A stretch of 61,019 nt of DNA, counting the filler. It is 4 parts of 4 records of this genome, joined end to end, with 100 filler letters (N's around TTAATTAATTAA, not from the genome) between each part and the next. Parts side by side here need not be neighbours in the genome. Positions count along the whole stretch, not along the records: positions 37,789 to 61,019 come from SRR20825006_978; 3 more parts are not named here. One strand, given 5' to 3'. Shown here piece by piece: positions 16,803 to 61,019 of this stretch. Each line of letters begins with the position of its first letter. Within the stretch, counting starts at the first letter, position 1. Below the pieces are notes generated by a model. That model was not told where the DNA came from, searched no databases, and saw nothing but the letters and a program-made list of their open reading frames with translations. Made by a program: the position numbers and the translations under genes.

Positions 16803-16902
16803 NNNNNNNNNNNNNNNNNNNNNNNNNNNNNNNNNNNNNNNNNNNNTTAATTAATTAANNNNNNNNNNNNNNNNNNNNNNNNNNNNNNNNNNNNNNNNNN
16901 NN
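16803..16902. other. Artificial contig linker
   Basis: N-run, TTAATTAATTAA, N-run. Confidence 0.98.
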
Positions 16903-17244: not shown

Positions 17245-17336
17245 GTGTGTTGATATGTTAATTTTAAAAACATTGTCCTTAGCCAAAAGAGTTACTACCT
17301 TAGCGACATAAGACAGAATTTAATAAAAGATTGAAA

Positions 17337-37688: not shown

Positions 37689-37788
37689 NNNNNNNNNNNN
37701 NNNNNNNNNNNNNNNNNNNNNNNNNNNNNNNNTTAATTAATTAANNNNNNNNNNNNNNNNNNNNNNNNNNNNNNNNNNNNNNNNNNNN
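37689..37788. other. Artificial contig linker at the Flavobacteriaceae/alphaproteobacterial boundary
   Basis: N-run, TTAATTAATTAA, N-run; abrupt GC shift. Confidence 0.98.
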
Positions 37789-42785: not shown

Positions 42786-43891
42786 GGGGCCGTTCTTTCC
42801 TCTTTCACTATACTCGTTACAATATCTGCAAGCCGCTCTGCAGCATCAAGGCATGCGATCTCCCGCATACCGTCTGACGCGTTCCTAAGTGCCGATGGAT
42901 CGGCCAGCAGGAAGCCTAATTTTTCTGTGAGCGCCTCTGGTGTAAACTCATGCTCTTTCATCACCCAACCACCACCGGCATCCTCGATCACCGACGCGTT
43001 CACGCTTTGGTGGTCGTCAGCCGCGATCGCAAGGGGGACCAGAATAGCAGGACGCCCCATGGCACAAAGCTCTGCGATAGTCGACGCGCCGGAGCGGCTG
43101 ATCACCAGCTGTGTACGCAGCAACAGTGACCCGACATCATCAAAATAGGATTGTACCCGGTGCTTCACGCCCGCGTCCGTATAGGCTGCAACCACGCGCT
43201 CTACATCTTCTTCCCGCGCTTGATGTGTGATTTCAAGCCGGGACTTCATATCGTCTGATAAGGCCGCCACAGCCGCAGGCACCACATCTGAAAGGATACG
43301 CGCGCCCTGGCTTCCTCCAATCACCAAAAGGCGGATGTCACCAAACCCGAAGGGCACGGCATAGGCAATGTTGGAGAGTTTTGAGATCAAGTGCCGCACA
43401 GGGTTGCCCGTTACCTCAGTATAGGCGCCTTTGGGAACACGCTGGCTATTCTCAAGCGACAGTGCCACCACGCGGGCATCTTCTGCCATAAAACGATTAA
43501 CACGGCCCAGCACCGCGTTCTGTTCATGCAAAACGTATGGAATTCCTTTGAGGCGCGCAGCAATAACCGCTGGCATTGAAGGATAACCACCGAAGCCAAC
43601 CACCACGTCAGGACGACGTTTTGAGAAATGACCCCGCACCTGAATCGTACTTTTGATAATGCTAAGAGCAGCGCGAACTTTGCCAATTAAACCACCGGCC
43701 ATATGACTGCTGGTTTGAAGCACTAATCGGTTCGCGTCGGCCATCGCGTTCTTGATTGCATCGCCGCGCGTATCGGTAATCAGGAAAACCTCGCACCCCT
43801 GACTCGTCAGCACGTCAGCGACAGCCTCGGCTGGCATCATATGCCCCCCGGTGCCGCCCGCGGCCAAAACGATATAGGGTGCCTCTGTCAC
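42782..43891 (-). CDS. murG: Undecaprenyl-PP-MurNAc-pentapeptide GlcNAc transferase
   Basis: GGTGGH, GFGGY, HEQN, GGSQGA, RSGAST and DDHQ motifs. GTG start overlaps the ftsW stop. Confidence 0.95.
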
Positions 43892-45039
43892 TCTGCGGCC
43901 CTCCAGCCCAACGGATCGGTGCCGGGCCTGATAAAACGGTTCCTTCTGGTCAACGCAAGCACCATGCCAGTACCGATTGCCAACGCAAGCATGGACGACC
44001 CACCGTAAGAGATAAACGGCAATGTCATGCCCTTTGAAGGCAAGATAGCCAAATTCACACCGATATTGATCAACGCCTGCATGCCGAATTGCATGATGAG
44101 GCCAGCAGCCGCGAGCAACCGGAAGGGATTTTCTTCCTCCAGAAGATGTGCGAGGCCCCGCACCACAAGGCCAGCGAACAGAATAAGCAGCATAACACAA
44201 GCGATGGCGCCGAACTCTTCACCAACCACAGCGAAGATATAATCCGTGTGCGCGTCAGGCAGGTGTAACTTTACAGCGCCTTCTCCTGGTCCTTTACCCA
44301 ACATTCCGCCAGATTCGAACGCCTGCATGGCCTTGTCTGTCTGATAAGTATCCCCGCTTTCGGGAGATATAAACCTGTCTATCCGGCTAGCTACGTGGGG
44401 CAGTAACGCGTAACCAAGGCCAAGCCCCAGAAGTCCAACCACACCAGCGAGCGTGAGCCACATTAGCGGCAGGCCCGCAAGCGCCATTTGCGCCATCCAT
44501 ACGCTACTGACCAGAATGGTCTGACCAAAGTCGGGCTGCAAAACGAGCAACATCACAACAAGAAGATAAAGCCCGAAGGCAACCCTTTTTGCAGGCACTT
44601 TTTCGTCGGTGAAGTGCGAGGACAAAACCCATGCGGTCGTGACAATAAAAAAGGGCTTCATGAACTCGCTAGGTTGAAGCGTGAAGCTGCCGATCTGCAG
44701 CCAACGTGTCGCACCCTTGATTTCGGGGCCAACCAGCAGCGCCAGCAGCATCAGCAAAATCATCGCGGGAAAGCCAAGAATAGCCATCCGCCTCACCATC
44801 GTGGTGGACATCATGGAAATACCCAACACCGTCACAAGTGCCACGCACAGGAAGAAGGCTTGCCGCTTTACGAAATGCAACGCATCAAGGCCAAGCCGTT
44901 CAGCAACTGCGGGGCTTGCGGTAAGGGTCAGCCAAATACCTACAGTGATCAGAACGAGGATAAGAGCCAGCATCCACCGATCAACTGTCCACCACCAGCG
45001 GGAAAGCACGGAATTATCAGTACGGGAAAACGCGATCAT
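43888..45039 (-). CDS. ftsW: SEDS peptidoglycan polymerase FtsW
   Basis: GATRW, QPSEFMKP, QPDFG, LPDAHTD and KGMTLPFISYGGSS motifs. Confidence 0.96.
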   Translation of the reverse strand: MIAFSRTDNSVLSRWWWTVDRWMLALILVLITVGIWLTLTASPAVAERLGLDALHFVKRQAFFLCVALVTVLGISMMSTTMVRRMAILGFPAMILLMLLALLVGPEIKGATRWLQIGSFTLQPSEFMKPFFIVTTAWVLSSHFTDEKVPAKRVAFGLYLLVVMLLVLQPDFGQTILVSSVWMAQMALAGLPLMWLTLAGVVGLLGLGLGYALLPHVASRIDRFISPESGDTYQTDKAMQAFESGGMLGKGPGEGAVKLHLPDAHTDYIFAVVGEEFGAIACVMLLILFAGLVVRGLAHLLEEENPFRLLAAAGLIMQFGMQALINIGVNLAILPSKGMTLPFISYGGSSMLALAIGTGMVLALTRRNRFIRPGTDPLGWRAAE

Positions 45040-46400
45040 GAGCGTTCTCCTGTCCGCGCAAGCACAAGGGAACGGAATACATCGCCTCGATTTTCAAAAT
45101 CCCGAAACTGGTCAAACGCCGTGCAAGCCGGTGACAGCAATATAACATCGCCTTCAACCGCGTTAGCCCGAGCACACTCGATAGCGTGTTCAAGATCACG
45201 GCAATCGGCAACGTCTACATCACCGCCAACGTCATGCGCGATGGCATCAGCCGCTTCACCAATCAGGTAGGCATGCTTCACTGTACCCATGAGGGCCGCA
45301 AGCGCCGTGAAATTCTTTTCTTTCGGCCTGCCGCCCGCAATCCAGTGAATATTCTCAAATGCCCTGAGGGCGCGCGAGGCGGCGTCAACGTTGGTAGCCT
45401 TGCTGTCGTTCACATACCGAATGCCGTCGATGGTGGCGACGGTTTCCTGCCTGTGCGCCAAGCCGGGGAAAGAGCCGAATGCAGAAATAATATCCTCAAA
45501 CTTGAACCCAAGGCTACGGCCTGCGGCATAGGCGGCGGCTGCATTTTGCCAGTTGTGGCTGCCCAGCAGCATGGGGGCACATTCCCGCAGATCTGCGCAA
45601 ACGACAGCTTCACCGTCCATATCGTCGGTCAGCATTCCGTCCAAAACATATACACCGCCCGCGACTGCCGTTTCGACGGAGATTGGCACCACATGCCCCG
45701 CATAAGTAGTCGCCATCGCAGCACCATGGCTGTCATCAACACTGATCACGGCCACACCGTCAGGCCCTTGTTGTTCAAACAGCCGCTGTTTGGCTGCCAC
45801 ATATCCATCAAGATCACCGTGCCGATCCAGATGGTCCGGTGTGATATTCAGTAGAATTCCGATATCAGCCTTAAAGCTTTGTGTGAGGTCCAACTGGAAC
45901 GATGACATCTCAAGTACATAAACGCCGCCCTCGGGTAGCAGATCAAGCGACAAGATACCTTTGCCTATGTTGCCGCCAATTGCGGCTGGCAAACCACACT
46001 CGTCCACAACATGGCCAATAAGGGCTGTGGTGGTAGATTTCCCGTTCGTGCCGGTGATGGCCACAACCTTATGGGGGGCCATATCCGTGCGCGCTTTCTC
46101 AAAAAAATCAAAGTCGCTAATGAGCGGTGTGCCAGCCTCGCGACACCGAACCACAATGGCGTGAGGCGCAGGGAAATTAAGCGGAACACCAGGTGCCAGC
46201 ATCACCGCATCAAGGCTATGCATATCAGCTTCATAGAGGTCATGTGAGTATGCACCAACCGCCGCCCGGCGCTCCGGCACATCGTCCCACGCGAGAACGT
46301 CAGCGCCAGATGCTTCAAGCGCCTGTACGGCCGCCACGCCAGTACGCGCAAGACCAAAAACTCCGACCTTCTTACCTTTATATGCTGATGCGGTGATCAA
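45036..46400 (-). CDS. murD: UDP-N-acetylmuramoyl-L-alanine--D-glutamate ligase
   Basis: TGTNGKSTTT, EMSSFQL, PDHLDRH, NDSKATN and LSPAC motifs. Confidence 0.96.
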   Translation of the reverse strand: MITASAYKGKKVGVFGLARTGVAAVQALEASGADVLAWDDVPERRAAVGAYSHDLYEADMHSLDAVMLAPGVPLNFPAPHAIVVRCREAGTPLISDFDFFEKARTDMAPHKVVAITGTNGKSTTTALIGHVVDECGLPAAIGGNIGKGILSLDLLPEGGVYVLEMSSFQLDLTQSFKADIGILLNITPDHLDRHGDLDGYVAAKQRLFEQQGPDGVAVISVDDSHGAAMATTYAGHVVPISVETAVAGGVYVLDGMLTDDMDGEAVVCADLRECAPMLLGSHNWQNAAAAYAAGRSLGFKFEDIISAFGSFPGLAHRQETVATIDGIRYVNDSKATNVDAASRALRAFENIHWIAGGRPKEKNFTALAALMGTVKHAYLIGEAADAIAHDVGGDVDVADCRDLEHAIECARANAVEGDVILLSPACTAFDQFRDFENRGDVFRSLVLARTGERS

Positions 46401-46406
46401 CGCTTT

Positions 46407-47483
46407 CTACCTCAACTTCAATGTAGCCAAGCCCACAAGGGCCAGAATGACTGCAATGATCCAGAAACGGATCACGATGGTGGGCTCAGCCCAGCCTTTT
46501 TGCTCATAGTGATGGTGAAGTGGTGCCATGCGGAAAACCCGCTTGCCTGTCAGCTTGAAGGACAGCACCTGCACGATCACCGAAATTGTCTCGAGCCAGA
46601 AAAGGCCACCAATAATACCAAGGGCAATCTCATGTTTGGTTACAATCGCCATGGTGCCAAGTGCCCCGCCGAGTGCGAGCGAGCCGGTATCACCCATGAA
46701 CACCATTGCGGGCGGCGCATTGAACCAGAGGAAGCCCAGCCCTGCGCCAATCATGGCACCGGCAAGTACCGCAAGCTCACCTGACCCAGCGACATACGTC
46801 ACACCAAGGTAGGAGCTATAAACCGAACTACCCACGAGGTAGGCGATAAAGCCAAACGCGCCCGCCGCAATAATCACGGGCACCGTTGCCAGACCATCGA
46901 GACCATCTGTCAGGTTCACCGCATTACCAGCCCAAACAACCACCAACATGGCAAAGGGGATGTAGAGAAAGCCCAGCTCAACAAGCAGGTTTTTCGCAAA
47001 CGGCAGAGCCAACGTCGTGCCATTGAGGTCTGAAACCAGCCAAGCGGCAAAACCGGCAATCGCGAACTCAAGTAGCAGGCGAATTTTGCCAGACACACCG
47101 TCAGACGTACGTTTGGTTACCTTGAGGTAATCATCAACAAAACCGATAGCGCCAAAACCAAGCGTCACGATCATCACAGCCCAGATATAAACGTTTGAGA
47201 GATCCGCCCACAAGAAAGTGGAAACCCCAAGCCCCAGCAAGATCATGAAACCACCCATAGTGGGTGTACCCGCTTTGCTTACGATGTGGCTTTGCGGTCC
47301 GTCCTCGCGAATTGGCTGACCCATTTTCTGTTTGGCCTTCAACCACCGAATGATCATCGGCCCGAAAATGAAGCAGATAATGAGTGAGGTAAGCACAGCG
47401 CCGCCGGTGCGAAACGTAAGATATTTAAACAGGTTAAAGATGCCATATTGGTCTGCAAGTGGCGCCAAAAGATTATAAAGCAT
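46407..47483 (-). CDS. mraY: Phospho-N-acetylmuramoyl-pentapeptide transferase
   Basis: [27 protein letters not shown] and APLHHH motifs. Confidence 0.97.
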
Positions 47484-48921
47484 AGCTTACTCCCAACTTG
47501 TTATTGGCGTCCTCAGCCCGTTCGGCCGCATTAACCCTTAATAATCCACGCACAATGTCGCCCAAGCCTGCACTGTTCGCCCCTTTGACGATAACCGCGT
47601 CACCGTCACGCAAGGTTTCCGCGAGCCTAAGGGCACTATCGTCGTCTTTATGCCAACGTTCAGTGCTGATGCCAGCGACCTTACCCACCTCATTCATCTG
47701 CGGACCAAAAGCGATAACCTTATCCACACCAAATCTCTTCAAATCATCGGCGAGTTTCATGTGCAATTCATTGCTGCGCGCGCCAAGTTCCCGCATGTCC
47801 GCCAGAACCGCGATACGCCTGCCGAACTTCTTTGTCGGCGTTAACGATAACCGGCGGAGGGCAGCCTTCAGGCTCAATGGGTTAGCATTATAGCTATCAT
47901 CGATCAGAGTTACTGTTGCGTGTGGTAAAGTAAGCAGGTGCTGCCTGCCACGACCGGGTTCCGCCTCAAGCTTCGCGAGGGCGAGCGCCGCATGCCCAAG
48001 GTCACCTTCTACAGCTTTCACTGCAGCAAGTACCAGAAGACTGTTGAGCACCCATTCGCGCCCAGGCTGACCGATCTTGTATGTGATAGTCGTGCCCGCG
48101 ACATCTGCTGTGAGGCAGGTGCAATTGCCGTGCTCAGTAATACGGAGCGGACGCACATCGGCCTCCCCTGTCACCGACACGGTTAAACGCTCATGCCCGG
48201 ATGCCTTAACTGCATCCATAAGGTTACCCGCCCATTCATGGTCAACCCCGAAGATAGCAACACCGTCAGGCTTAAGGCCTTCAAATATCTCTGATTTTGC
48301 CTTTGCAATTTCAAAAATTCTACCAAACCGGCCCGCGTGCGCCGCCCCAACTGCCGTCACCACTGCTACATCAGGCTTTACAAGCATGGCGCCGCCCCTG
48401 ACCTCGCCCGGCCCACTCATGCCAATCTCAAACACACCGAAACGAGCCTGACGCGGCATCCGCGCGAGCGATAGCGGCACACCTACATGGTTATTGAAAC
48501 TTTTGATGCTGGCGTGAGTTGCGTCCGTGCGCTCAAGTGCCTGACGAAGTGCCTGCACAACGCTTGTTTTACCAGCGCTGCCTGTCACCGCGATTGTTTT
48601 TACGGGTGCGCGCACACGCGCTTGCGCTGCCATCAACCTCAAGGCCTGCATGGTATCTGGCACATGCACGAGCTTAAGCGCAGGAATGTCTTTGCCGGGC
48701 ACATCTTCGCTTACAATCGCAGCGACCGCGCCTTTTGAAAACGCTTCAGCCACATAGGCATGCCCATTTTTCTGTGTACCCGGAAGTGCAACAAACAAGT
48801 CACCTGGCAAAACTTCCCGGCTATCAATTTGAATGCCATCCGCATACCACGGCTGAGCACCTGCGCCGCCGCAGGTTGCTGTCAGTTCCGCCGATGTCCA
48901 TAACGGTTCTTTAAAATTCAC
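47473..48921 (-). CDS. murF: UDP-MurNAc-tripeptide--D-Ala-D-Ala ligase (somewhat divergent)
   Basis: [31 protein letters not shown] and DMRELG motifs; dcw position. Confidence 0.9.
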
Positions 48922-50387
48922 GCCCCAGCCCCCGCTTGGCCCGCCGTATCGCCCAAAATTTCCCGAACTGTCCCGATGTCCGAGAATGGCACGACCGTGT
49001 CGCCAATAATTTGTCCCTCTTCATGCCCCTTGCCTGACACGATCAACATATCACCCGCCTCAAGCGCCACCATCGCAGCAAGAATTGCTGCATGACGATC
49101 CCCAACTTCTGTCGCACCGGGACAGGCTGTCATAATCTGGCGCCTGATCTCCGCTGCATCTTCACTGCGCGGATTGTCGTCGGTTACATACACATAATCT
49201 GCAAGATCATGGGCGATTTTTCCCATCAACGGGCGTTTGCCAGCGTCCCGGTCGCCACCACAGCCAAACACAACATGGAGTTTGTTTGGCTTATGGGCCC
49301 GTGCCGCATTCAACACCGTGCGCAAGCCGTCAGGCGTATGGGCATAATCGACAAAAACGCTGCCACCTTTGGCCACACTACCAACCAACTCCATCCGCCC
49401 TGGCACCCCCCGCAGGCCAGAAAGGGCCTCAAACACCTGCTCCGGTGCGCTGCCTGTGGCAATTACCAGCCCTGCTGCCATAAGTGCGTTGTAAGCTTGA
49501 AAGGTACCCACAAGTGGCAGATCAGCTTCAAACGCTGAGCCACAAAATTCCATCTGCAGTTTCTGGCCGTCAGGAGCAACCTCCTGAGACACCAGCCGAA
49601 GCATGGCATCTGCATTGCTGCCAACAGTCAGGAGCGATTGCCCACGCGCCCACGCGATATCTTCAAGAATACACCCCCAGGGGTCATCTGTATTGATAAC
49701 CGCTGTTCCTTGTGGCCCTAGAAGGTCACCAAACAGGCGCGCTTTGGCATAGAAGTAGCCTTGCTCGGTACGGTGATAATCCAGATGATCACGAGTGAGA
49801 TTGGTAAATGCCGCAGCCTGCAGGCGCATGCCGTCAAGCCTGTATTGATCAAGCCCATGGCTGGAAGCCTCCACGGCGACATGGTCAACACCTTTAATAG
49901 CAAGCATATTAAGTGCTTTATGAAGTGCGAGTGGGTCTGGCGTGGTCAGGCCGCCCGGCTCGGAATACCGCTCTGAGCGGACACCGAGCGTGCCCATACT
50001 TGCTGCGTGCACCCCAATTTTCTGCCAAAGCTGGCGGGCAAAATCAGCGACCGATGTTTTGCCATTTGTTCCGGTAACAGCAACCTGCACTTCGGGTTGA
50101 GCCCCACAAAAGCGCGCCGCCAGCTGCGCATATCGCCTACGCGGATTTACGTCACCAATAAACGGCACACCCACTTTCGCATCACTATACCCTTCCGTGG
50201 TGAGAACAGCGCATGCCCCTGCCTTGATGGCGTCAGCAATATAGGCACGGCCATCTTGCTTTGTGCCGGGCAGCGCCACAAAAAGGTCACCCTTCTTCAC
50301 GGCCCGGCTATCAACCGTCATGCCGGAGATAACAATATCTCCAGAGACGTTAGAACCACCCAGAAGCTGTGCAAGTGTGACCGTCAT
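48918..50387 (-). CDS. murE: UDP-MurNAc-dipeptide--meso-DAP ligase
   Basis: TGTNGKTS, EASSHGL, DYAHTPD, DNPR (meso-DAP type) and GKGHE motifs. Confidence 0.96.
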   Translation of the reverse strand: MTVTLAQLLGGSNVSGDIVISGMTVDSRAVKKGDLFVALPGTKQDGRAYIADAIKAGACAVLTTEGYSDAKVGVPFIGDVNPRRRYAQLAARFCGAQPEVQVAVTGTNGKTSVADFARQLWQKIGVHAASMGTLGVRSERYSEPGGLTTPDPLALHKALNMLAIKGVDHVAVEASSHGLDQYRLDGMRLQAAAFTNLTRDHLDYHRTEQGYFYAKARLFGDLLGPQGTAVINTDDPWGCILEDIAWARGQSLLTVGSNADAMLRLVSQEVAPDGQKLQMEFCGSAFEADLPLVGTFQAYNALMAAGLVIATGSAPEQVFEALSGLRGVPGRMELVGSVAKGGSVFVDYAHTPDGLRTVLNAARAHKPNKLHVVFGCGGDRDAGKRPLMGKIAHDLADYVYVTDDNPRSEDAAEIRRQIMTACPGATEVGDRHAAILAAMVALEAGDMLIVSGKGHEEGQIIGDTVVPFSDIGTVREILGDTAGQAGAGA

Positions 50388-50405
50388 TTGCGGTAACTCT
50401 ATCCC

Positions 50406-52088
50406 TTACTTCTCAATCATCATGGCGACGTTCTGATACAGACCGTCGTCTTCTCGTTTTGGCGCCACACCCAATAGGGGTGCAGTGCGCAGAATTACAT
50501 TCTTCACCACAGGCGCTGCGACCCAGCCTCCTGCGCGGAAACCAAAGGTTTCTTTGGTACCACGCGGCTCATCCAGCAGCGCAAAAACCACATAACGTGG
50601 GTCATCCATTGGATAAATACCCACAAAAGAGGAAATCAGCGCGCGTGTGTCATACCCGCCTGCGACAGCCTTTTCGGCTGTGCCCGTTTTGCCGCCAACG
50701 CGATACCCGACCGCATCAGCGCGCCCACCAGTACCTTTGGTGACGGCCAGGCGTAGCAATTGACGGATTTTGCGGCTCGTAGCCGCTGAGATAACCTGCT
50801 TACCATTAGTCCAAGCCTCAGGATTATCAACAAGTGTGGCGGCATTAAGTCGCCCACCATTGACCATCGCTGATATTCCGCTCGCAAGTTGCAGCGGGCT
50901 CACTGCAATGCCATGACCATAAGAAATTGTCATGGTTGAAACCTTGCGCCAAGTATCTGGGAACAGGGGCGACCCAACTTCCGGAAGCTCAATGGTTGCT
51001 GGCTGCAACAGCCCGATTTCTGACAGGAACACCTGCTGCTTGTCGGAGCCGAGATCAAGTGCCATTTGTGCGGTGCCGATATTGCTGGAATAGGCAAAAA
51101 TCTCAGGTAGCGTCAGGTAGCGCGATTTCGGGTGATCGTCGCTAATGGTGAACCGTGCGATGCGAAGGGGCTTGGTTGCATCGTAACCGTCCTCAAGCGA
51201 CGCCACACCTTGATCAAGCGCTGCCGCAAACGTGAAGGTCTTGAAGGTGGAGCCAAGCTCATACACACCCTGGGTTACCCGGTTGAAGCGCTCTTGCCCC
51301 GCACTACCACGGACACTATTAGGGTCAAAGTCCGGCAACGACACCATGGCCACAACTTCACCAGTTGCCACATCCATCACAAGGCCTGCCGCACCCAGCG
51401 CCTGATGCGCGCTCATCGCTGCTTCAAGCTCGTCGGTCAGCGCATACTGCACGCGAGTATCAAGCGCCAGCTTGATGGGCTGATCAGTCATTGTTCTGTC
51501 AGCGAGGCGATCATCAAAGTACCGCTCAACACCACCAAGGCCTTTGCCGTCAACATCCACAAAACCAAGCGCGTGAGCTGCAAGGCGCCCGTGGGGGTAT
51601 ACCCGCTCCTCTTCAGCTTGGAACTGGAACGCAGGGATACCAAGTGCGTTAACCTGCCATTTTTCGCGCGGCGAAAGCTTGCGCTTCAGCCATACAAACC
51701 GACGTCCCGAGCTGAGCTTTTCCTCAACGTCAGCGAGCGAAAGGTCGGGCAACACGGATACAAGCTTCATGGCAGCTTCATGCGCATCCTTGATATCCTG
51801 CGGATTAGCATAAAGCGATGCGCTCTGAAGGTTTGTCGCCAGCACCTCACCGTTCCGATCAAGGATATCAGCGCGCGCAATCGTCACCGGTGGCACCACG
51901 ATATGCCGCGCCGCAACCTGTGTCTGCTCCGGCGTTGAAAGGCCCAGCTCAACGGTACGAATCATCATCACCACAAAAGCGGCAAAAAACAGCAAAACCG
52001 CAACCATCAATCGGTTGCGGGCTACTTCAAGCGCACTCTTATGCCGCCCTTCCATGGACAGCCCTGCGTATGTTGATGCCGTTCTCAC
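50406..52088 (-). CDS. ftsI: Class B penicillin-binding protein FtsI/PBP3
   Basis: RADILDRNG, STFK, SSN and KTGTA motifs. Confidence 0.94.
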   Translation of the reverse strand: MRTASTYAGLSMEGRHKSALEVARNRLMVAVLLFFAAFVVMMIRTVELGLSTPEQTQVAARHIVVPPVTIARADILDRNGEVLATNLQSASLYANPQDIKDAHEAAMKLVSVLPDLSLADVEEKLSSGRRFVWLKRKLSPREKWQVNALGIPAFQFQAEEERVYPHGRLAAHALGFVDVDGKGLGGVERYFDDRLADRTMTDQPIKLALDTRVQYALTDELEAAMSAHQALGAAGLVMDVATGEVVAMVSLPDFDPNSVRGSAGQERFNRVTQGVYELGSTFKTFTFAAALDQGVASLEDGYDATKPLRIARFTISDDHPKSRYLTLPEIFAYSSNIGTAQMALDLGSDKQQVFLSEIGLLQPATIELPEVGSPLFPDTWRKVSTMTISYGHGIAVSPLQLASGISAMVNGGRLNAATLVDNPEAWTNGKQVISAATSRKIRQLLRLAVTKGTGGRADAVGYRVGGKTGTAEKAVAGGYDTRALISSFVGIYPMDDPRYVVFALLDEPRGTKETFGFRAGGWVAAPVVKNVILRTAPLLGVAPKREDDGLYQNVAMMIEK

Positions 52089-52474
52089 AGCGTGGGTCCT
52101 TTCTCTTTATCCGGCTTGTTCGGTTGATCTGTCGATTTGCCCCTAGCGGCTGTTGGCAGAAGCACACCGGGGTCCTCCTCCGCTTCAACGCCGCGCGGGC
52201 GGAACGGAATACGGTCAGGCTCACTGAGTATTTGTTCTGCCGCCGGCGGCATCAGCGCGAGAAAGCGGATAGATTTCTCCTGCAACGCCCGCGGCGTGGT
52301 GAGATACGCCCACTCGGCTTCCAGCACACGGATCGCTTCCCGATCTTCGTGGATCTGGTTCGCGAGCGCCTTGACCTCATCTGCCTTTTCCTGCACAGCG
52401 AGCTTGAGCTGCAACACAGCAGCGCCTGCAAAAAGTGCGGTTACCGCTGCGAGGATAGTGAAAAGCCGCCGCAT
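52085..52474 (-). CDS. ftsL: Cell division protein FtsL
   Basis: TM helix plus coiled coil with LEAEWAYL..P, between rsmH and ftsI. Confidence 0.8.
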   Translation of the reverse strand: MRRLFTILAAVTALFAGAAVLQLKLAVQEKADEVKALANQIHEDREAIRVLEAEWAYLTTPRALQEKSIRFLALMPPAAEQILSEPDRIPFRPRGVEAEEDPGVLLPTAARGKSTDQPNKPDKEKGPTL

Positions 52475-53487
52475 CAACGCCTCCCGTCTTTGGAAGGTGC
52501 CCACGCGGGCGCGCTAGTGCGGATTGCTACGCGAAGCCGGGAAGAACGAGAACGCGGATTACGGCCCACCTCTTCCTCACCCGGCTTCACGGCTCCCTTG
52601 TTCTTCAATTTGAAACTTGGCGCAGGCCCCGCGCTCACAGGGCCGGGCATGTGCCGACTGCCGCCGGCCTGCATGCCGCTTCGTTCCGCCATAAAGTTTT
52701 TAACGATACGGTCTTCGAGTGAGTGGAAACTCACCACAACCAGACGCCCACCCTCGGAAAGCAATGCCTCTGCTCCCTCGAGGCCGCGGCGCAACTCACC
52801 GAGCTCATCATTCACATGAATACGAAGCGCTTGGAATGTACGCGTTGCAGGGTGAACTGCTCGCTGGCCTTTTCGCACCGGCGGACGGCCCAGCACGCGC
52901 TCAATCATATCGGCAAGCTGTTTGGTGCGCTCAAACGGTGTTGTCACGCGATCTTTTACAATTGCCGCAGCAACGCGGCGAGACTTCCGCTCTTCGCCGT
53001 AGTTATAAATAATGTCAGCAAGCTCTTCCTCGCCATATGTATTGACGACGTCAGCCGCACTTTCACCAGCCCGCCCCATGCGCATGTCCAAGGGGCCATC
53101 TGCCATGAAAGAAAAACCGCGCTCGGCTTCATCAAGCTGAAAGCTGGAAACGCCGATATCAAGCATCACGCCATGAACTGCATCAACACCCGCATCAGGC
53201 AACAGCGACGCCATGTCACCAAAACAGCCTTCCAGAATTTGAAACTTATCGCCAAACTCCGCCTTTAGCGTGCTGGAGCGCGTGATGGCATCCGGATCGC
53301 GATCAATCGCGATAACCCTGCAATCGGCATTACCCAGCACGGCACGGGTATAACCACCCGCCCCAAAGGTACCGTCGACATAAGCTTCACCTGAGCTAGG
53401 CTCCAGCGCACTTACTACCTCATCAAGAAGAACGGGAATGTGCCGGCCAGTAGCCTCAGCGGCTTGGATATCGCCCTTGCTCATCAT
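52474..53487 (-). CDS. rsmH: 16S rRNA m4C1402 methyltransferase
   Basis: HIPVLL, DGTFGAGGY, DIGVSSFQLD, FHSLEDR and NPRSRS motifs. Confidence 0.97.
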   Translation of the reverse strand: MMSKGDIQAAEATGRHIPVLLDEVVSALEPSSGEAYVDGTFGAGGYTRAVLGNADCRVIAIDRDPDAITRSSTLKAEFGDKFQILEGCFGDMASLLPDAGVDAVHGVMLDIGVSSFQLDEAERGFSFMADGPLDMRMGRAGESAADVVNTYGEEELADIIYNYGEERKSRRVAAAIVKDRVTTPFERTKQLADMIERVLGRPPVRKGQRAVHPATRTFQALRIHVNDELGELRRGLEGAEALLSEGGRLVVVSFHSLEDRIVKNFMAERSGMQAGGSRHMPGPVSAGPAPSFKLKNKGAVKPGEEEVGRNPRSRSSRLRVAIRTSAPAWAPSKDGRR

Positions 53488-53951
53488 GCCTGCCCTCCAC
53501 CACCAAATGGCGGCAGCTTCGGCGCGGCTTCAGCGGCTTGCTCCAACTGGTCTTTGAGATGCTCTTGGTAGGCGTCAGCTCCCCAGATTTGGAACTTGCG
53601 ACCAAGCCCAACAAATGTGGCGTGGGTATCGACACCTGCCGCCGCACGCATTTCAGCAGGCAGCATCACGCGACCTTCAGGGTCAAAAGCAAGCTGACTG
53701 GAACCAGCGAGAATGGCGGTGGCGACGGACATTTGGTCGGGATTGAAAGGTCCAAAATCGCCGTAGAGCCGGTCAGACAATTGCTCAAGGAAAGTGAGGT
53801 CTGCGCCTTCGATACAGGGGAAATTCAGAGGTCGGTAAACGACAATACCGGGGAAGTGACTGGAGGATACGGCTTGACGAAAAGAGGCTGGGACAGAGAC
53901 CCGCCCTTTCTTGTCTACCTTGTTTGTGAATGTGGACAGGAAAAATGCCAT
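53484..53951 (-). CDS. mraZ: dcw cluster transcriptional regulator MraZ
   Basis: FLSTFTNKVDKKGRVSVP and DPEGRVMLP SpoVT-AbrB repeats. Confidence 0.93.
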   Translation of the reverse strand: MAFFLSTFTNKVDKKGRVSVPASFRQAVSSSHFPGIVVYRPLNFPCIEGADLTFLEQLSDRLYGDFGPFNPDQMSVATAILAGSSQLAFDPEGRVMLPAEMRAAAGVDTHATFVGLGRKFQIWGADAYQEHLKDQLEQAAEAAPKLPPFGGGGQA

Positions 53952-54015
53952 TGCCCAACAAGCCCCCGATTGTTCTCCCCCCATTCTTTGCCGCCAAACA
54001 AAGCACAGGCATTCA

Positions 54016-54030
54016 GAACGTCTTCTGAAC
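54016..54030. promoter_or_regulatory. Candidate alphaproteobacterial LexA box GAAC-N7-GAAC
   Basis: GAAC-GTCTTCT-GAAC, 65 nt upstream of mraZ. Confidence 0.4.
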
Positions 54031-54035
54031 ATATT

Positions 54036-54081
54036 TGGGATATCATGGTTTTTAATGGGTGGTCAATGGGTCTGTATGGGC
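54036..54081. promoter_or_regulatory. MraZ-binding TGGGN direct repeats
   Basis: TGGGA/TGGTT/TGGGT/TGGGT/TGGGC at 54036, 54046, 54056, 54067, 54077; a further TGGGA pair at 54223 and 54233. Confidence 0.65.
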
Positions 54082-54450
54082 CTTAGTGACTTTTTATGTA
54101 TAGGAAATTTTAGCCTGACAAGACATTTATTTCTTTTAAATCAAATAGATATGAACATATGTTTCCTATATGTTCTCACTTTTTCTTCACTCTCTTCCCC
54201 GCCTTCGCGGAATCCAGAAATTTGGGAAATCATGGGAAAGGGCTGCCGCGCCCTAAGGCATAACACGTCGCTAACCGAGCAATTTTTGTGGTTGTCGACA
54301 GGCCATCGCAATGCCAAACATCACTGAACAGGTCATCCGTCTATGGTAAAATTGCCATTGACCTCTCGATCCGAGAGATAAATCTCGCTAAACAAGTGGA
54401 AGCGATTTATCCACGTTGTGGCAGACCCAACAGGCAAGGAAGTTTGATCG

Positions 54451-55125
54451 ATGAAGAATATTGTTATCACCGGAGCCGCCGGTGCGCTTGGCACCGCCGC
54501 CATTGACGCCCTGAACACCCCCAAAAACAATGTTATTGCACTTGATGCAGCGAAGGCGCGGCCCGCTAGTCTCCCGGAGGATGTGAAGTATCTGGGCGGA
54601 TATGATCTCACGGATATGGAGGCCACGAAGAAGGCTGCTGCCGCCATTCATGATAAATTTAAAACAGTGGATGCCTTAGTGCATATCGCAGGCACTTTCG
54701 CCTGGGAGGAAATCAAGGACGGCTCACCAGCCACTTGGCAACGCATGTATGACATCAACCTGATGACCGCCCTGAACACCACACAGGCGTTATTGCCATC
54801 CTTCGCTGATGGTGGATCTGTGGTTTATATTGGCGCAGCTGCTGCCATGCCTGCGGTACGCGGCATGGGCGCTTATGCGGCCTCCAAGGCTGCCGTGCGG
54901 GCGCTGACCGAAAGCCTTGCGGATGAGCTATCCGGCCAAAAAATCCGGGTAAACGCAGTGCTCCCCCGCATTATCGACACCCCAAAGAACCGTGCGGATA
55001 TGCCGGACGCGGACTATAGCGAATGGACAACGCCGGAAGCCATTTCAGATGTGATCGCTTTCCTCACGTCCAGCAAAGCGCGCTGTATTTCAGGCGCTTC
55101 TATTCCCGTGACCTTCTCGGCATAG
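54451..55125 (+). CDS. Short-chain dehydrogenase/reductase
   Basis: ITGAAGALG, YAASK and VNAVLP..IDTP motifs. Confidence 0.9.
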   Translation: MKNIVITGAAGALGTAAIDALNTPKNNVIALDAAKARPASLPEDVKYLGGYDLTDMEATKKAAAAIHDKFKTVDALVHIAGTFAWEEIKDGSPATWQRMYDINLMTALNTTQALLPSFADGGSVVYIGAAAAMPAVRGMGAYAASKAAVRALTESLADELSGQKIRVNAVLPRIIDTPKNRADMPDADYSEWTTPEAISDVIAFLTSSKARCISGASIPVTFSA

Positions 55126-55131
55126 GTTTCT

Positions 55132-55170
55132 GCGCGCAGAAGGTAGCTCTCGTATCTGCCTTTTGCGCGC
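55132..55170. terminator. Hairpin between the convergent SDR and VOC genes
   Basis: GCGCGCAGAAGGTAG-N9-CTGCCTTTTGCGCGC. Confidence 0.6.
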
Positions 55171-55173
55171 CCA

Positions 55174-55545
55174 CTACCGATGCTGGTCAATCAGTATCGG
55201 GTTGCCGTCAGGGTCTGTCACCATGAAGCTCGCCGGACCACTGGTGTTTTCATCCGCTTCAGTCACAAGCGGCACCCCTGCCTTTTTGAGCGCCCGCTGA
55301 ATGTCGCGAACATCAGTGAAATCATCAAGCGGCTCTGCACTACTGTCCCAGCCGGGATTGAAGGTCATCATGTTTTTATCAAACATGCCCTGAAACAACC
55401 CAAGCACACAGGTGGGGCCTTTCATGATCAACCATCCTTGATCACGATCACCACCCATGACGGTAAATCCAAGTTTTTCATAGAAAGCCTCAGATGCAGC
55501 GATGTCTTTCACGTTAAGACTAAGTGAAAATGCTCCCAGGTTCAC
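55174..55545 (-). CDS. VOC/glyoxalase family protein
   Basis: LGAFSLSLNVKDI, GLFQGMF and DPDGNPILIDQH motifs. GTG start after a GAAAGGA Shine-Dalgarno. Confidence 0.87.
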   Translation of the reverse strand: MNLGAFSLSLNVKDIAASEAFYEKLGFTVMGGDRDQGWLIMKGPTCVLGLFQGMFDKNMMTFNPGWDSSAEPLDDFTDVRDIQRALKKAGVPLVTEADENTSGPASFMVTDPDGNPILIDQHR

Positions 55546-55660
55546 AAGACTAGTCCTTTCTCTGTTTCCTGCCACGCTTCGCCTCATGCGAGGGGCCCTC
55601 CTCTGAAGCCTGCCCTCGACAAAACATAAAAATCAACCGATTATCGATGCCCGGCAAGCT

Positions 55661-56860
55661 ATGGAAGGCATTATCTTGACTGGATTACTGATCATCACTG
55701 TCGCCACAATCTTTCTCGCGCTAATCGCGAAGCGACTTTCTTCCACGGTGATTACGCCGCCGATGTTTTTCCTCGCGCTCGGAGCATTGTTTTCTTTTAC
55801 CGATCTACTCCCAAAAGAAAACGCACAAGAAGGGCTTCATCTGGTTGCTGAAGTTGCCCTTGTAATCTTGCTGTTTCTTGACGCCGCGAAAGTAGATCTT
55901 GCAGAACTTATAAGGGAGCGAACGGTCCCGCTGCGCATGCTGTTGATTGGGCTACCGCTCGCCATCCTGCTCGGCACAGGTGGTGCGTTTCTACTATTGC
56001 CAGACTGGCCACTTTTTGCCCTCGCACTGCTTGCCGCCATACTGGGCCCCACAGATGCCGCACTCGGGCAATCCGTCATTACCGACCCCAGCGTGCCTGA
56101 AATGGAACGTCAGTCTCTGTCCGTTGAGAGCGGCATGAACGACGGCTTAGCATTGCCTGCCATCTTGCTTTTCGCGAGCCTGGCCGCAATCACCCCTGCG
56201 TCTGAGGCAACCAACTGGTTCACTTTCATCGCCATGCAGCTCACGCTCGGGCCGCTAATAGGTGGCGCAGTTGGCTACGTTGGTGGCTGGCTTTTCCTGC
56301 GTGCAGACGAGCGAAAATATACCGCCAGCACATATGAAGGGATCAGCACCCTCGCATTAGCCGGTGCAGCTTATCTGAGCGCGACCCTGCTTGGCGGAAA
56401 CGGTTTTATAGCGGCCTTTGTCGCAGGCCTGGCATTTGGCAATATTGTCAAAGGCCGATGTCAGTTTATCTATGACTTCACCGAAAGTGAGGGACAGATG
56501 CTGAGCTGGGCCGCCTTTTTCCTCCTTGGCCTTACGCTTGTACCTTTGGCGGCGCAAAACCTCACCCTGCCCGTTTTCCTTCTGATCTTGACGAGCCTTT
56601 TCGTCATCCGCCCACTGGCTATCTGGCTATCTTTGACAGGTACCGGCCTCCCACCCAGGACAAGGATCTTCTTCGGCTGGTTTGGTCCGCGCGGTTTAGC
56701 CACAGCCTTGTTTGCGCTTTTAATTGCAGGAAACAGCGAGGACGCACAGGGCGAGGCTATTTTGATGATTGCTATTAATGCGGTATGGATCAGTGCCCTT
56801 CTGCACGGCGTTACTGCCGCCTTTGGTGCGCTATGCTACGGCCGTTACTCTGGGAAATAA
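55661..56860 (+). CDS. NhaP-type cation:proton antiporter (CPA1)
   Basis: LFLDA, PTDAALG, VESGMNDG and WFGPRGLA motifs. Confidence 0.9.
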   Translation: MEGIILTGLLIITVATIFLALIAKRLSSTVITPPMFFLALGALFSFTDLLPKENAQEGLHLVAEVALVILLFLDAAKVDLAELIRERTVPLRMLLIGLPLAILLGTGGAFLLLPDWPLFALALLAAILGPTDAALGQSVITDPSVPEMERQSLSVESGMNDGLALPAILLFASLAAITPASEATNWFTFIAMQLTLGPLIGGAVGYVGGWLFLRADERKYTASTYEGISTLALAGAAYLSATLLGGNGFIAAFVAGLAFGNIVKGRCQFIYDFTESEGQMLSWAAFFLLGLTLVPLAAQNLTLPVFLLILTSLFVIRPLAIWLSLTGTGLPPRTRIFFGWFGPRGLATALFALLIAGNSEDAQGEAILMIAINAVWISALLHGVTAAFGALCYGRYSGK

Positions 56861-56866
56861 CCATAC

Positions 56867-56895
56867 AAAAAAAGGGCCCGCAGGCCCTTTTCTTT
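56867..56895. terminator. Bidirectional intrinsic terminator
   Basis: AAAAAAAGGGCC-CGCA-GGCCCTTTT. Confidence 0.8.
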
Positions 56896-56907
56896 ATCCG
56901 TTCAATT

Positions 56908-59388
56908 TTAGAAACTGCTGTCGCAATGCCAGCACGGCTCACCCTGCCCACTCCCGATCGGGCTTCCCGGCGGGATAGTTGCCTCAGCCGGTTCCTTCAC
57001 GGCTGGTGTGCGGGCTCGCGCCAGCGCGTCATCAATGCGGGCAATCAGACCAGACGCAAACGCACCGTCGCGGCGGCGCATTTTCTCTGCCCGCGAGCGT
57101 ACATCCATCAGTGCAGCCCGGCTTTCCTGCCTCACAACAACCGGCACATCGACCCCGAGTGAAAGGCCGATAAGGCGTTCGGCATAGTCACCCGCCACTT
57201 GTTGGCGAAGGGCCACATCTTTGGCCGCATCCCCTTTACCATCTGCCATCATCGCGGCTGTTACACGCGCGAGAACAGCGCGAAGCCCAGGGTATTCATC
57301 CCCCGCATCACCCTGTGAAGCAACACGGGCAAGCCGGGCAGGATTGAGAAGTGCATCAAAACTCAACGCCGCCGCACTTGCCGCGGCTTTGGTTGCATCA
57401 AAAAGTGGACGGCTCGCATTATCAAACACCTCACGGTTAAATTGCGGGTCACCGTCTGAGTAGCCAAGCGGCGACAGAACCGTCACCACCTCATCAGGAA
57501 TAGAAAGGGCTTCAGGCGTCAGGGTTTCCAGCAAAAGATCAAGCGCTTTCTGCTGCTCTACCCAGGCAACCGGCGCGGGTGCAGGGCGCCCGTCTCCTTC
57601 ATGGCGATACACAAAATTCATGCCGCCGAGGCTTTTAGCCGCCGCCGCCAACTGGTAGCGATGATAAAGGTAAAGCGGCACAAATTTGCTTTGGAGTGCG
57701 CTCAGGCTCTCACCCGCACGCAAGTTCCCCATGCCAAAGTTTTCCAGCGCGATACGCCGCACGTTCAGGGTGTTGCGCAGGCTCTCAATCGGGTCATCAC
57801 CCGTATCCCACACCGCGCCGCGTGCATGGCCGCTTGAGATGCTGCGGCTATCCGGGTCAGAAACATAAAGGTGCCCATAGGCATCTGCTTCACGGATCAG
57901 GGCAGCCTGAGCTTCAGCCTCGGACGCGCCATCATAGTCGCCATAGAGGAAATTGGTCGTCCACTTATCCCAACTACCAATCCCCACACCGTAGACGGAG
58001 GAGAAATCAAGCGCGCTGCCTTCGCCCACACGTACATCGGGGGCGGGATAGTCCATCACGCTTGCGCGGTCATCATAGGTGCTTGCGCCCATATTATGGG
58101 CAAAACCAAGCGCATGCCCCACCTCATGCGCCGCCAGTTGGCGGATACGCGCGAGCGCAAGCTCAACCGGGTCGTCATCCACGCCCGTGCCGGTTTTTGA
58201 TGCGCCAGCAAGTGCTTCAAATATCTTGATATCCTGCCGCACGCGCAGGCTGCCCAGCAGCACAACGCCGCGCAGCACTTCGCCAGTGCGTGGGTCGGCA
58301 ACTGCCGCACCATATGACCACCCCCGTGTTGCCCGGTGAACCCAGTTCACAACGTTATAGCGCGCATCAAGCGGGTGCACACCTTCGGGCAAAATCTCTA
58401 CCCGATAACCACCGGGGTAGCCTGCCGCCGCGAAAGCGTCAGCCCACCAGTTAGCCCCTTCTTGCAAGGCGGAGCGGATTGGTTCCGGCGCGCCGTTATC
58501 TATATAAAAGATGATCGGCTTGATCACCTTGCCGCTCTCATCTTTTTCAAGGCGAAACCGGCGCGCAAGCCGCACAACCGTATCGCCCGCAAGCGGCGCA
58601 GACATATCAACATAATCAAGCCCGATCAGCGCCGCGCGCTCATCATACAAGCGGGTTTTATAACCGTCGTCCGGCAACTTGAGCAGACTTGTGTGCGCGA
58701 TCAGCGTCACTGCTTCCGGCACAGGCGTGGTGGCGCGCACCTCGCGGCCCGGATCTGATGAATTGAAGGTTACATAAGCGTCAAACTCGCCGTTTTCGGG
58801 GAACATGAAAGCCGCTTTTGTATCCACCAGCGTATGAGCCTTTGCGATCGAGAAACTGCCCTGCCCGCGCGCCTTAAGCTGGGCCGCAACCCCCACCGCG
58901 TCACGTGTCAGGAAGGAGGAGAAATCAACCAACAGCCGACCGGTCTCCTCATCCTCTTCCATAATGTCACCAGTCCAGATGATCGACTGTGCAAAGCTGG
59001 TTTCAACTGCGCGGCGCTCCGCCGCATTGTTGGCCGTGGCACGAAAATCCCAGTTCTCAACCATGGCAACAATCTTGTCGCCCATGCGGCGGAAGGAAAT
59101 AATCTCGCCGCCATTTGGCACGCTGCGGTCAAGGCCTACAGGGTTGGAACCAAGCCCGCCAGTGAGATATGCCGCATAGATATACCGCCCGGCGATGCCG
59201 TTCTCATCCGGCTTATCAAGCGCAAGCAATACACGCGCTTTCCCGTGGTCAACATAGGTGTCCACAAGGCCGTCCTTGAACTCAAGGTCTTTGGTAGCCT
59301 CGCTAAAATCGGCAAGTGCTGCACACGACAGGCCCAGCATAGCCGCCCCCGTCAGCATCCCCCATGACATGGTTTTCATGAAAGTCAT
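56908..59388 (-). CDS. Exported zinc-dependent metalloprotease (metzincin, DUF5117/DUF4953-like)
   Basis: Signal peptide; DPRTGEVLRG, HEVGHALGFAH and SVMDYP Met-turn motifs. Confidence 0.85.
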   Translation of the reverse strand: MTFMKTMSWGMLTGAAMLGLSCAALADFSEATKDLEFKDGLVDTYVDHGKARVLLALDKPDENGIAGRYIYAAYLTGGLGSNPVGLDRSVPNGGEIISFRRMGDKIVAMVENWDFRATANNAAERRAVETSFAQSIIWTGDIMEEDEETGRLLVDFSSFLTRDAVGVAAQLKARGQGSFSIAKAHTLVDTKAAFMFPENGEFDAYVTFNSSDPGREVRATTPVPEAVTLIAHTSLLKLPDDGYKTRLYDERAALIGLDYVDMSAPLAGDTVVRLARRFRLEKDESGKVIKPIIFYIDNGAPEPIRSALQEGANWWADAFAAAGYPGGYRVEILPEGVHPLDARYNVVNWVHRATRGWSYGAAVADPRTGEVLRGVVLLGSLRVRQDIKIFEALAGASKTGTGVDDDPVELALARIRQLAAHEVGHALGFAHNMGASTYDDRASVMDYPAPDVRVGEGSALDFSSVYGVGIGSWDKWTTNFLYGDYDGASEAEAQAALIREADAYGHLYVSDPDSRSISSGHARGAVWDTGDDPIESLRNTLNVRRIALENFGMGNLRAGESLSALQSKFVPLYLYHRYQLAAAAKSLGGMNFVYRHEGDGRPAPAPVAWVEQQKALDLLLETLTPEALSIPDEVVTVLSPLGYSDGDPQFNREVFDNASRPLFDATKAAASAAALSFDALLNPARLARVASQGDAGDEYPGLRAVLARVTAAMMADGKGDAAKDVALRQQVAGDYAERLIGLSLGVDVPVVVRQESRAALMDVRSRAEKMRRRDGAFASGLIARIDDALARARTPAVKEPAEATIPPGSPIGSGQGEPCWHCDSSF

Positions 59389-59490
59389 ACGCTGTCCCCT
59401 TTTTCTGAACTCAGGAGACATTAGCGCGTGAGAATAAGAATGGAAGAAGAAGATAAAGGCAGATGGCCCCTCTAAAGGGGCACTGTCAGA

Positions 59491-60729
59491 CTACGGCGTT
59501 GATTTTGTTTTATTTCCGGTTGCCATTTGGTGCAACATATCCAGCAATCCTATCGGCGGACCCTCGTCTGATTTGGGATTAATCGGGCGTACTAAAGCAT
59601 TCAAAATCAGAGCCCTTTCCTCATTGGAAAAAGTTTGTCGCTCATCAAGCAGCGCAAGGTACACCTCCAAGATTGTCGCCCGCAGTTTACTGTCTTCATT
59701 TAAGCCCTCGTGCAAAATTGCACCGTTATTTACAAGCTTCAATATCCACAAGAAGAGTGCTAACGGCAGGAATACTGCGATAGCAGACACGAATTGCCAA
59801 GTTTGAGGTAATGCGTTCACAAACTCAATGATCGGACTGTCTAAACCAAGAGAAAAACCCTCCGCATAAATTACGCCTTTAACTATACATCCTGTCAAAA
59901 GAAGCAGACTCAGGAATATAAGCCGATATACAAACATGTATCCAAGGTGCCATCGCGATTTTTTTCGCCAGTACTTCCTCCCAGCATTGAGCTTTACAGT
60001 TTCCGAAATTTTCGTACTTATGGCCTCTTCTTTACCTTCTAGATCTAAAATGCGCTGGCTGACACCATGCATATCGGAAACAACCTTGTTGTAGCTTTCC
60101 TTATAGGCATCATGCATTTGAGTTAGACCAGATTTGGCTTCCTCCAGCTCCGTCGCGATTGATCCAATCTTTCGCTCAGCCAAAGACACCACGTCTGCGT
60201 ATGTACGCAAACTGACTTTCTCGAGGAGCAATTGCACGCCCGGCATTGCACCAGCTAAACTGTAGCCCTTGATCGCCTGCTCCAGATCTTGATGGGCGGT
60301 CTTATCAGATTTACGATCATCATACGCTACCTTGTGCAACTCGAAGACCTTAACTCTCAGGAGACGGGCCACATATCCTGCCCGCGTCCAAGGGTAACCC
60401 ATTTTCTCCAAGTATTCCCCTACCGGGTGTTCTCGCACTATTAATCCCGAATTGGCTGCATTCTCCAACTCGGCTTGAATGGCGTCAATTTTGGGGGTTT
60501 CCTCACCTTCTCCAGTCTCCACAATTTCGAGAAATCTATCATAAGGAGCCAATAGCTCTGATGTGTGATCAAAAGATAGTGGAAATGGAATGGAGCGGAT
60601 GTATGAACGCTGCTCGTTACACCAGCGCCTAAATTCTTCAAAATCCACAAAGCCAACAGCTAGATTGATTGGGCCTTCCGGAAGCCTAAAAATCGGCTTT
60701 CTCTCATCTGGCGATTTTTTTTGAGCCAT
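59491..60729 (-). CDS. Hypothetical coiled-coil protein with two TM helices (DUF6161-like C-terminus)
   Basis: GGGGAGGTG Shine-Dalgarno; coiled coil, YWRKK.RWH, two TMs, R..LEVYLAL..ER.LILNALVRP. Confidence 0.75.
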   Translation of the reverse strand: MAQKKSPDERKPIFRLPEGPINLAVGFVDFEEFRRWCNEQRSYIRSIPFPLSFDHTSELLAPYDRFLEIVETGEGEETPKIDAIQAELENAANSGLIVREHPVGEYLEKMGYPWTRAGYVARLLRVKVFELHKVAYDDRKSDKTAHQDLEQAIKGYSLAGAMPGVQLLLEKVSLRTYADVVSLAERKIGSIATELEEAKSGLTQMHDAYKESYNKVVSDMHGVSQRILDLEGKEEAISTKISETVKLNAGRKYWRKKSRWHLGYMFVYRLIFLSLLLLTGCIVKGVIYAEGFSLGLDSPIIEFVNALPQTWQFVSAIAVFLPLALFLWILKLVNNGAILHEGLNEDSKLRATILEVYLALLDERQTFSNEERALILNALVRPINPKSDEGPPIGLLDMLHQMATGNKTKSTP

Positions 60730-60761
60730 CGCTCACCTCCCCAAGAGTAGCAATGTGCTCA

Positions 60762-60790
60762 ATTCTCAACCGAAAGTGTATTTTGTGCAA
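60762..60790 (-). promoter_or_regulatory. Candidate sigma70 promoter of the islet gene
   Basis: TTGCAC-N17-GAGAAT; the -35 overlaps the end of the direct repeat. Confidence 0.45.
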
Positions 60791-60798
60791 GAAGATAA

Positions 60799-61019
60799 AG
60801 GCAGATGGCCTGTAAGCCGGGTTCTGTACCTGCAACGCAGGCGATGACCATTCCTCTAGGCCTTATGTTGCCATAAGGCTCAAGCAACCTACCACAACGG
60901 AGACGCGAAAACCCGCCTTGCCCTTAGAGGGATACCGTTCATTTGGTTTTGCTCCCGGTGGGGTTTACCGTGCCGCCCCTGTTACCAGGCGCGCGGTGCG
61001 CTCTTACCGCACCCTTTCA
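60799..61019 (-). ncRNA. rnpB: RNase P RNA (class A), 3' portion; 5' part outside the window
   Basis: Minus strand has GAAAGGGTGCGGTAAGAGCGCACC, GGTAAACCCCACCGGGAGCAA, TAGAGGAATG and ACAGAACCCGGCTTA. Confidence 0.96.

Follow-up and report, generated by a model that had tools for sequence, protein, structure and literature searches.

A one-gene islet bounded by a duplicated RNase P RNA gene tail in Kordiimonas

The DNA analysed here is a stretch of 61,019 nt joined from four pieces and called the window throughout; its last piece (37789-61019, about 55% GC) is from Kordiimonas and stops inside rnpB, the gene of the RNase P RNA. Beside rnpB, entirely within the Kordiimonas piece, lies an islet comprising a single foreign gene without integrase, bounded by two direct copies of the rnpB tail. 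The same site is empty in a sister species, holds a divergent allele in a close relative, and unrelated cargo lies between rnpB-tail repeats in other species of the genus. An integrase-less islet with att-type repeats, formed by site-specific recombination at a recurrent insertion site, is the explanation favoured here, with reasonable though far from complete confidence. Positions 41020-61019 are 100% identical to genome G001, which stands in for the sequence beyond the window end.

The repeat is the 22-mer AAGAAGATAAAGGCAGATGGCC, identified exactly at 59447-59468 (distal copy) and at 60789-60810 (proximal copy), with no other match in the whole window at up to 3 mismatches; two copies occurred in none of 100 shuffles. 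The perfect duplication of the rnpB 3' end described in an earlier sequence-only reading is therefore real and beyond chance. The 3' portion of rnpB, which encodes an RNase P RNA of bacterial type A, occupies 60797-61019 on the minus strand, where the Rfam model RF00010 scores 157 bits and is cut on the 5' side by the window end; the full-length gene of the islet-bearing genome G001 scored 315 bits. Read on the rnpB strand, the repeat comprises the terminal 10 nt of the P1 3' strand, CUUU and 8 nt of trailer. It had been said to cover the end of the gene plus trailer, which holds, and about 11 nt of rnpB, which does not, the RF00010 alignment giving the last 14 nt. These 14 nt of full-length rnpB are supplied by the proximal copy, which is the functional 3' end of the gene, and the end of the RNA gene is regenerated. 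The distal copy is a displaced rnpB tail and an att-type site: in G024 the rnpB body directly adjoins the same 22-mer. No terminal inverted repeats joining the islet ends were found, so the islet is not transposon-like and lacks the inverted ends of a transposon or casposon.

Between the two copies lie 1,320 bp of unique DNA, and the insertion, counted with one repeat copy, amounts to 1,342 bp. It holds exactly one gene, as first described, a single long open reading frame (ORF) of 412 amino acids at 59491-60729 on the minus strand, called here the cargo. The remaining 81 nt are non-coding and contain no gene fragments; they are a 59-nt leader (60730-60788, minus strand) and a 22-nt tail. The leader carries the strong Shine-Dalgarno sequence already noticed, GGAGGTG, 6 nt upstream of the cargo ATG (plus-strand 60734-60740). 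The promoter assigned to the cargo, TTGCAC-N17-GAGAAT, fared worse: by eye it agrees with the consensus at 7 of 12 positions, it was not called by the promoter scan, and no convincing promoter was identified in the leader. Expression by read-through from rnpB is plausible, because the cargo is co-directional with rnpB and starts 59 nt past the repeat with no terminator between them. Just past the cargo stop, at 59466-59481, is the reported hairpin GCCCCT-CTAA-AGGGGC (GCCCCU-UUAG-AGGGGC on the minus strand), with 6 bp and an overlap of 3 nt with the distal repeat, which comes next and is pyrimidine-rich. The hairpin folds at -13 kcal/mol, unexceptional compared with shuffles (z = -0.77), and is a candidate terminator of the cargo.

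The GC content of the islet is 0.461, below all 204 windows of the same size in the contig (minimum 0.508, mean 0.552, standard deviation 0.019). The cargo gene itself has a GC content of 0.458 and, at third codon positions, of 0.465, against 0.604 in the neighbouring gene; the spot counts first given, 24/60 in the line starting at 59821 and 36/60 in that at 58081, were both exact. This neighbour, which forms the distal chromosomal flank, is located at 56908-59421 on the minus strand and encodes a secreted met-zincin (DUF4953, E 2e-52; DUF5117, E 4.7e-25). It is a conserved neighbour of rnpB in several members of the genus.

The cargo protein belongs to the DUF6161/AbiZ family. It passes the Pfam cut-off of DUF6161 marginally (27.3 bits vs 27.0) and resembles the PADLOC AbiZ model PDLC02354 weakly over residues 190-381 (E 5.4e-4, 17.4 bits); among its aligned homologues DUF6161 was identified in 49 of 50 and AbiZ in 39 of 50 (best 2.6e-20). 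A HMMER search over 1.84 billion representatives gave 632 matches at E <= 0.001, 15 at E <= 1e-10 and 3 at E <= 1e-30. Most of them cover only the C-terminal ~200 residues, and the N-terminal helical domain is retained only in the three closest relatives, P0002-P0004. Two membrane helices are predicted from hydropathy, at residues 261-290 and 309-339, both in the conserved C-terminal part. The AlphaFold model (mean pLDDT 85, pTM 0.47) is all-helical with one very long helix, and Foldseek found no match to it in the PDB at E <= 0.001.

Close relatives of the cargo are scarce. The only close homologue is P0002, with 52% identity (1 match among 5.8 billion clusters); in a sample of 401 genomes of the order the cargo was strongly matched in one and weakly in three (E 1e-6 to 2e-4), and in genome_contigs it was identified at one locus only, that of G001. 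No loci of P0002-P0004 were found in metagenome_contigs or viral_contigs, and a search for the cargo gave no match on phages and one weak Rhizobium match on plasmids, with 22% identity. In Lactococcus, AbiZ brings about the premature lysis of infected cells. The cargo resembles it in its length of about 400 amino acids and in a C-terminal region with two membrane helices where the profile match falls, and differs in that this match is weak and that the wider homologues share the C-terminal part alone. A Pseudomonadota DUF6161 family is listed, in a 2025 preprint (10.1101/2025.01.08.631966), among high-scoring predicted antiphage proteins without known homology. The cargo is most likely a membrane protein of single-gene phage defence of the abortive-infection type, a function suggested by these family matches; as such it would lend itself to a defence assay, as a natural and portable single gene from a large family.

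The genus comparison comprised 32 species representatives, with rnpB identified in 31; contig ends or the absence of a match leave G016, G022, G026 and G017 outside the comparison of the rnpB interval. In the sister species G024 the site is empty: the 22-mer is present once and the flanks are uninterrupted, the left one continuing window positions 59380-59446 and the right one continuing the window from 60811 onward, and the matches to the met-zincin gene (86% of nucleotides) and to rnpB (96%) overlap by the 22-mer. Also empty are G023 and G004, with diverged trailers, and G021, as well as G003, G006 and G015 by match coordinates only.

Eighteen sequencing runs contain part of the stretch, and four of them were compared as contigs, among them X3, X4 and X7. 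Both islet junctions were identified without differences in X3, which may be the window's own source. The X4 contig (12,893 nt) covers 57511-60627 at 91.6% identity with the islet present. The X7 contig (99,791 nt) follows 57500-59450 with 28 differences in 1,951 nt (98.6% identity); at 59450 it breaks off, 3 nt inside the distal repeat, and 778 letters give way to 759 that cannot be aligned; the match resumes over 60229-61019, the N-terminal coding part and rnpB, with 92 differences in 791 nt and 3 gaps. This contig is a near-identical chromosome in which the islet allele was replaced by a divergent one. The protein matching the X7 allele is P0002, recorded on a contig of exactly this length; its identity with the cargo is 83% over residues 1-167 and 34% over residues 168-412. 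The cargo alleles are thus mosaic, as if the C-terminal membrane or effector half had been swapped.

A second repeat-bounded islet was identified in G020, where an exact rnpB-tail repeat of 33 bp (40/42 when extended) encloses 1,015 bp with one ORF of 290 amino acids. This ORF is convergent with rnpB and has a weak glycosyltransferase-like Pfam match below the cut-off; the GC content of the islet is 0.448 vs 0.553 in the flank. The same gene is found in G012 with 79% amino acid identity, split in two and with a distal repeat of 17/18, and G019 is the matching empty site for this islet. In the sample of 401 genomes of the order, the gene was matched in 10 at E <= 1e-5, strongly in G020 and G012 only, the other eight being 25-30% identical. 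Both mismatches of the G020 repeat are at the inner end, and the hairpin allele in the displaced copy resembles that of G019 and not G020's own. Such a pattern would be expected if the element had brought its own rnpB-like attP from another host. The comparison of rnpB-to-metalloprotease intervals proposed with the first description thus yielded both an empty site with a single copy (G024) and different cargo between repeats (G020 and G012).

The remaining occupants of the interval are diverse. In G005 a gene of an MmeI-type IIG restriction-modification enzyme (1,158 amino acids, PADLOC E = 0; L036 550-4023) lies directly past the rnpB tail, and nothing is found at its place in G007; this insert was not counted as a third repeat-bounded islet, its ends showing only a weak, imperfect repeat of ~16 nt. 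The other intervals have no repeats: a DUF885 gene was identified in G002, G007, G014, G008, G011 and G005; an ABC/HlyD/OEP operon in G027, G032, G028, G029, G030 and G018; an M24 peptidase in G010; a BTLCP protease in G031; and an ORF of 519 amino acids without Pfam family in G013. In G009 and G025 rnpB lies beside mraZ/mraW. A repeat match of 16/17 in G032 is inside the OEP gene and was taken as chance. In G011 (L037 995-8467) the met-zincin and DUF885 genes are separated by about 7.5 kb that hold an LtrA gene and four ORFs of 974, 408, 455 and 96 amino acids, with no Pfam or PADLOC match for the four ORFs. Many of the interval differences across the genus are ordinary differences in gene content without repeats.

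As for the rest of the window, its four pieces meet at N-filled joints (5207-5306, 16803-16902 and 37689-37788, with paired runs of 44 N). Pieces 1-3, at about 33% GC, resemble Bacteroidota and include a Bacteroid-trp leader (16583-16704) and a RecA-like ORF (17331-18350); they and piece 4 come from different organisms. The window is accordingly a set of concatenated contigs, and this accounts for its sharing of only 40% of words with G001.

In the favoured explanation, a small foreign unit made of one gene, the 59-nt leader and the 22-nt tail would have entered the extreme 3' end of rnpB by site-specific recombination in a single Kordiimonas lineage. The recombination would have duplicated the 22-bp segment common to element and target, leaving the rnpB 3' end intact in the proximal copy and displacing the original tail by 1.3 kb, to the distal copy; the recombinase would either have acted in trans or have been lost. 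Site-specific recombination is preferred because the target duplication is precise, the repeats of the two unrelated islets differ in extent (though each overlaps the final ~14 nt of the gene), the mismatches in G020 are attP-like and inverted ends are lacking. Other species of the genus have independent insertions at the rnpB tail, which behaves as a recurrent hotspot of insertion and exchange. The sequence-only reading had proposed such a hotspot for a minimal cassette, either mobilised in trans or exchanged by recombination. The hotspot is borne out by the empty site of G024, the other cargo of G020 and G012 and the swapped allele of X7; for mobilisation in trans, no helper recombinase, third att copy or excision joint was found in the searches described next.

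Several results weigh against the favoured explanation. There is no integrase in the islet, as first noted, its sole ORF matching DUF6161, and the proposed search for integrases near rnpB was negative: Pfam identified no recombinase among 48 distinct interval ORFs (33 of the 47 in one listing and 15 of the 52 in another, two being scanned twice; small overlapping ORFs and ORFs far from rnpB were left out), and the 12 PF00589 matches of G001 are all more than 200 kb away, the nearest at ~476 kb and ~908 kb with the islet at 694 kb. Even with 2 mismatches allowed, G001 holds just two copies of a 19-nt core of the repeat and no third att copy. In the whole genus at up to 3 mismatches, the 22-mer was identified in G001 (two copies), in G024 (one rnpB-tail copy) and, with 3 mismatches, once on another contig of G027. 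No contig of the four runs joins across 59469-60810 or shows a circle junction, so the suggested check for excised circles or an empty attB came out negative, in contigs, where rare forms stay hidden, and this counts as silence more than as evidence. The islet of X4, a relative of ~92% identity, suggests that it has been inherited vertically for a long time. The repeat, moreover, is only 10 nt of the P1 strand plus CUUU and a lineage-specific trailer of 8 nt, which means that the donor must be a close relative, and the AbiZ score of the cargo itself is weak.

Duplications of the rnpB tail are also rare, which counts on the same side. More than one copy of a conserved 17-mer of the rnpB 3' end at up to 1 mismatch was found in 8 of the 401 order genomes; in a sample of 401 genomes of the class the exact 17-mer was present in two copies in none and in one copy in 206 (a tally that takes in G585 and G428, one copy each, on which no claim rests). 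This motif lies outside the 22-bp repeat of the window, and the counts miss islets of the window's type. Among the multi-copy genomes checked (G020, G114, G201, G333 and G389), only G020 has an islet; G007, G034 and G137, with copies on opposite strands or another contig, stand outside the checked set. The two copies of G114 are at two contig ends and probably represent one locus, not an islet, and the extra 17-mers of G389 are inside ORFs and were likewise rejected. The two exact 17-18-mers of the rnpB 3' motif in G389 (L090 5029-5046 and L091 5092-5108) are far from rnpB and unlikely to occur by chance.

The islet could alternatively be the decayed remnant of an integrase-bearing island or prophage at the rnpB tail, reduced by internal deletions to one gene and both att sites, that is, a cis-mobilizable element (CIME) in the strict sense. 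Decay is the accepted origin of att-flanked elements without integrase, according to PMC5704250; no helper element is visible now, the att core being otherwise found in the genus only as the single copy of G024, and decay of the second islet is plain to see in G012, with its altered distal repeat and its gene in two pieces. Yet the non-coding DNA that remains (22 + 59 nt) holds no gene fragments and no remnants of integrative and conjugative or integrative and mobilizable elements (ICE and IME). The one-gene layout is repeated in three islet lineages (G001, X4 over the part covered by its contig, and the X7 variant) and again in the independent G020/G012 islet and the G005 insert, and repeated decay to exactly one intact gene would be unlikely. 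A decayed island is accordingly a minority possibility, to be kept in mind but doubtful.

Less probable still is that rnpB and the met-zincin gene merely serve as anchors for homologous recombination, the repeat being an old scar without present role. The content of the interval varies widely over the 32 species representatives, mostly without repeats, and the allele replacement of X7 could itself be homologous recombination. However, anchors leave unexplained why the rnpB tail was precisely duplicated twice, over 22 bp in one case and 33-42 bp in the other, around unrelated genes, and X7 stays highly identical as far as the repeat edge at 59450, its flank showing no donor-like patch. An ancestral gene at this locus, with the empty sites produced later by deletion between the repeats, is hardly credible: such recombination would leave one copy, as in G024, but the cargo is present in only 1 of 32 species representatives, has a single close homologue among the billions of clusters searched and a GC content 9 points under that of the contig and outside its whole range, and the more distant G023, G004 and G021 are empty too. 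The islet is foreign and not fixed, and the outcome that would have spoken against a mobile islet (a gene fixed across the family with host-like composition and no empty alleles) is excluded by these comparisons.

Within the site-specific explanation, the 81 non-coding nt and the repeated one-gene layout make us lean slightly towards an element born minimal rather than decayed. Decay, or at least present immobility, is favoured by the lack of a visible helper, by the long period of vertical inheritance and by the degraded state of the G012 copy, and in the genome studied here the islet has probably ceased to move. A more speculative extension, to which we give little credence at present, is that the rnpB tail may be a landing pad for a family of one-gene cassettes moved or exchanged by a recombinase encoded elsewhere. 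If true, single defence genes would be loaded, in an integron-like way, directly behind a strongly transcribed ribozyme gene, and the one-gene size of the independent islets would be explained; the repeat-less insert of G005 likewise consists of one gene.

The ends of tRNA and tmRNA genes are textbook integration sites, and rnpB is hardly documented as a target: a literature search over main texts without supplements found no paper in which the RNase P RNA or its gene serves as an att site. Here the pair of filled and empty sites, the second islet and the swapped allele show its repeated use in one genus, and units so minimal, with one gene and no recombinase, raise the question of how such cargo moves. 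Islander-type islands, as reportedly described by Williams in 2002, are genomic islands and prophages that tyrosine integrases insert at the 3' end of a tRNA or tmRNA gene. Like them, the islet lies at the regenerated 3' end of a structural RNA gene, is bounded by direct repeats of att type, has empty counterparts in relatives and is foreign in composition; it differs in that its target is rnpB and that it comprises one gene in 1.3 kb without integrase.

Three other systems are comparable. The CIMEs of the streptococcal ICE/IME systems (PMC5704250) likewise keep attL and attR and lack integration and transfer genes; the islet, from another phylum, shows no sign of ICE/IME derivation and no accretion partner, and has one gene from its earliest visible state. 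The tycheposon-associated islands of Prochlorococcus, as presented in bioRxiv 10.1101/2020.12.28.424599, use 6 tRNA genes and the tmRNA gene and contain fragmented integrases and arrays of partial tRNAs. These too are from marine bacteria, with cargo by RNA-gene att repeats and integrase-less remnants in hotspots, whereas the islet has a single pair of repeats, at rnpB, and lacks integrase fragments. Integron gene cassettes are similar in consisting of one promoter-poor gene at a strongly expressed platform, with the recombinase not encoded in the unit. Unlike them, the islet is a single unit with no intI/attI platform, its boundaries are direct repeats of the target, and it shows no attC-type structure, the 6-bp hairpin being the only one seen and no attC model having been applied. 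The rnpB-tail islet comes closest to the RNA-gene-targeting integrase islands, the CIMEs and the tycheposon-associated island remnants, and differs from them by its target, its missing recombinase and its one-gene size.

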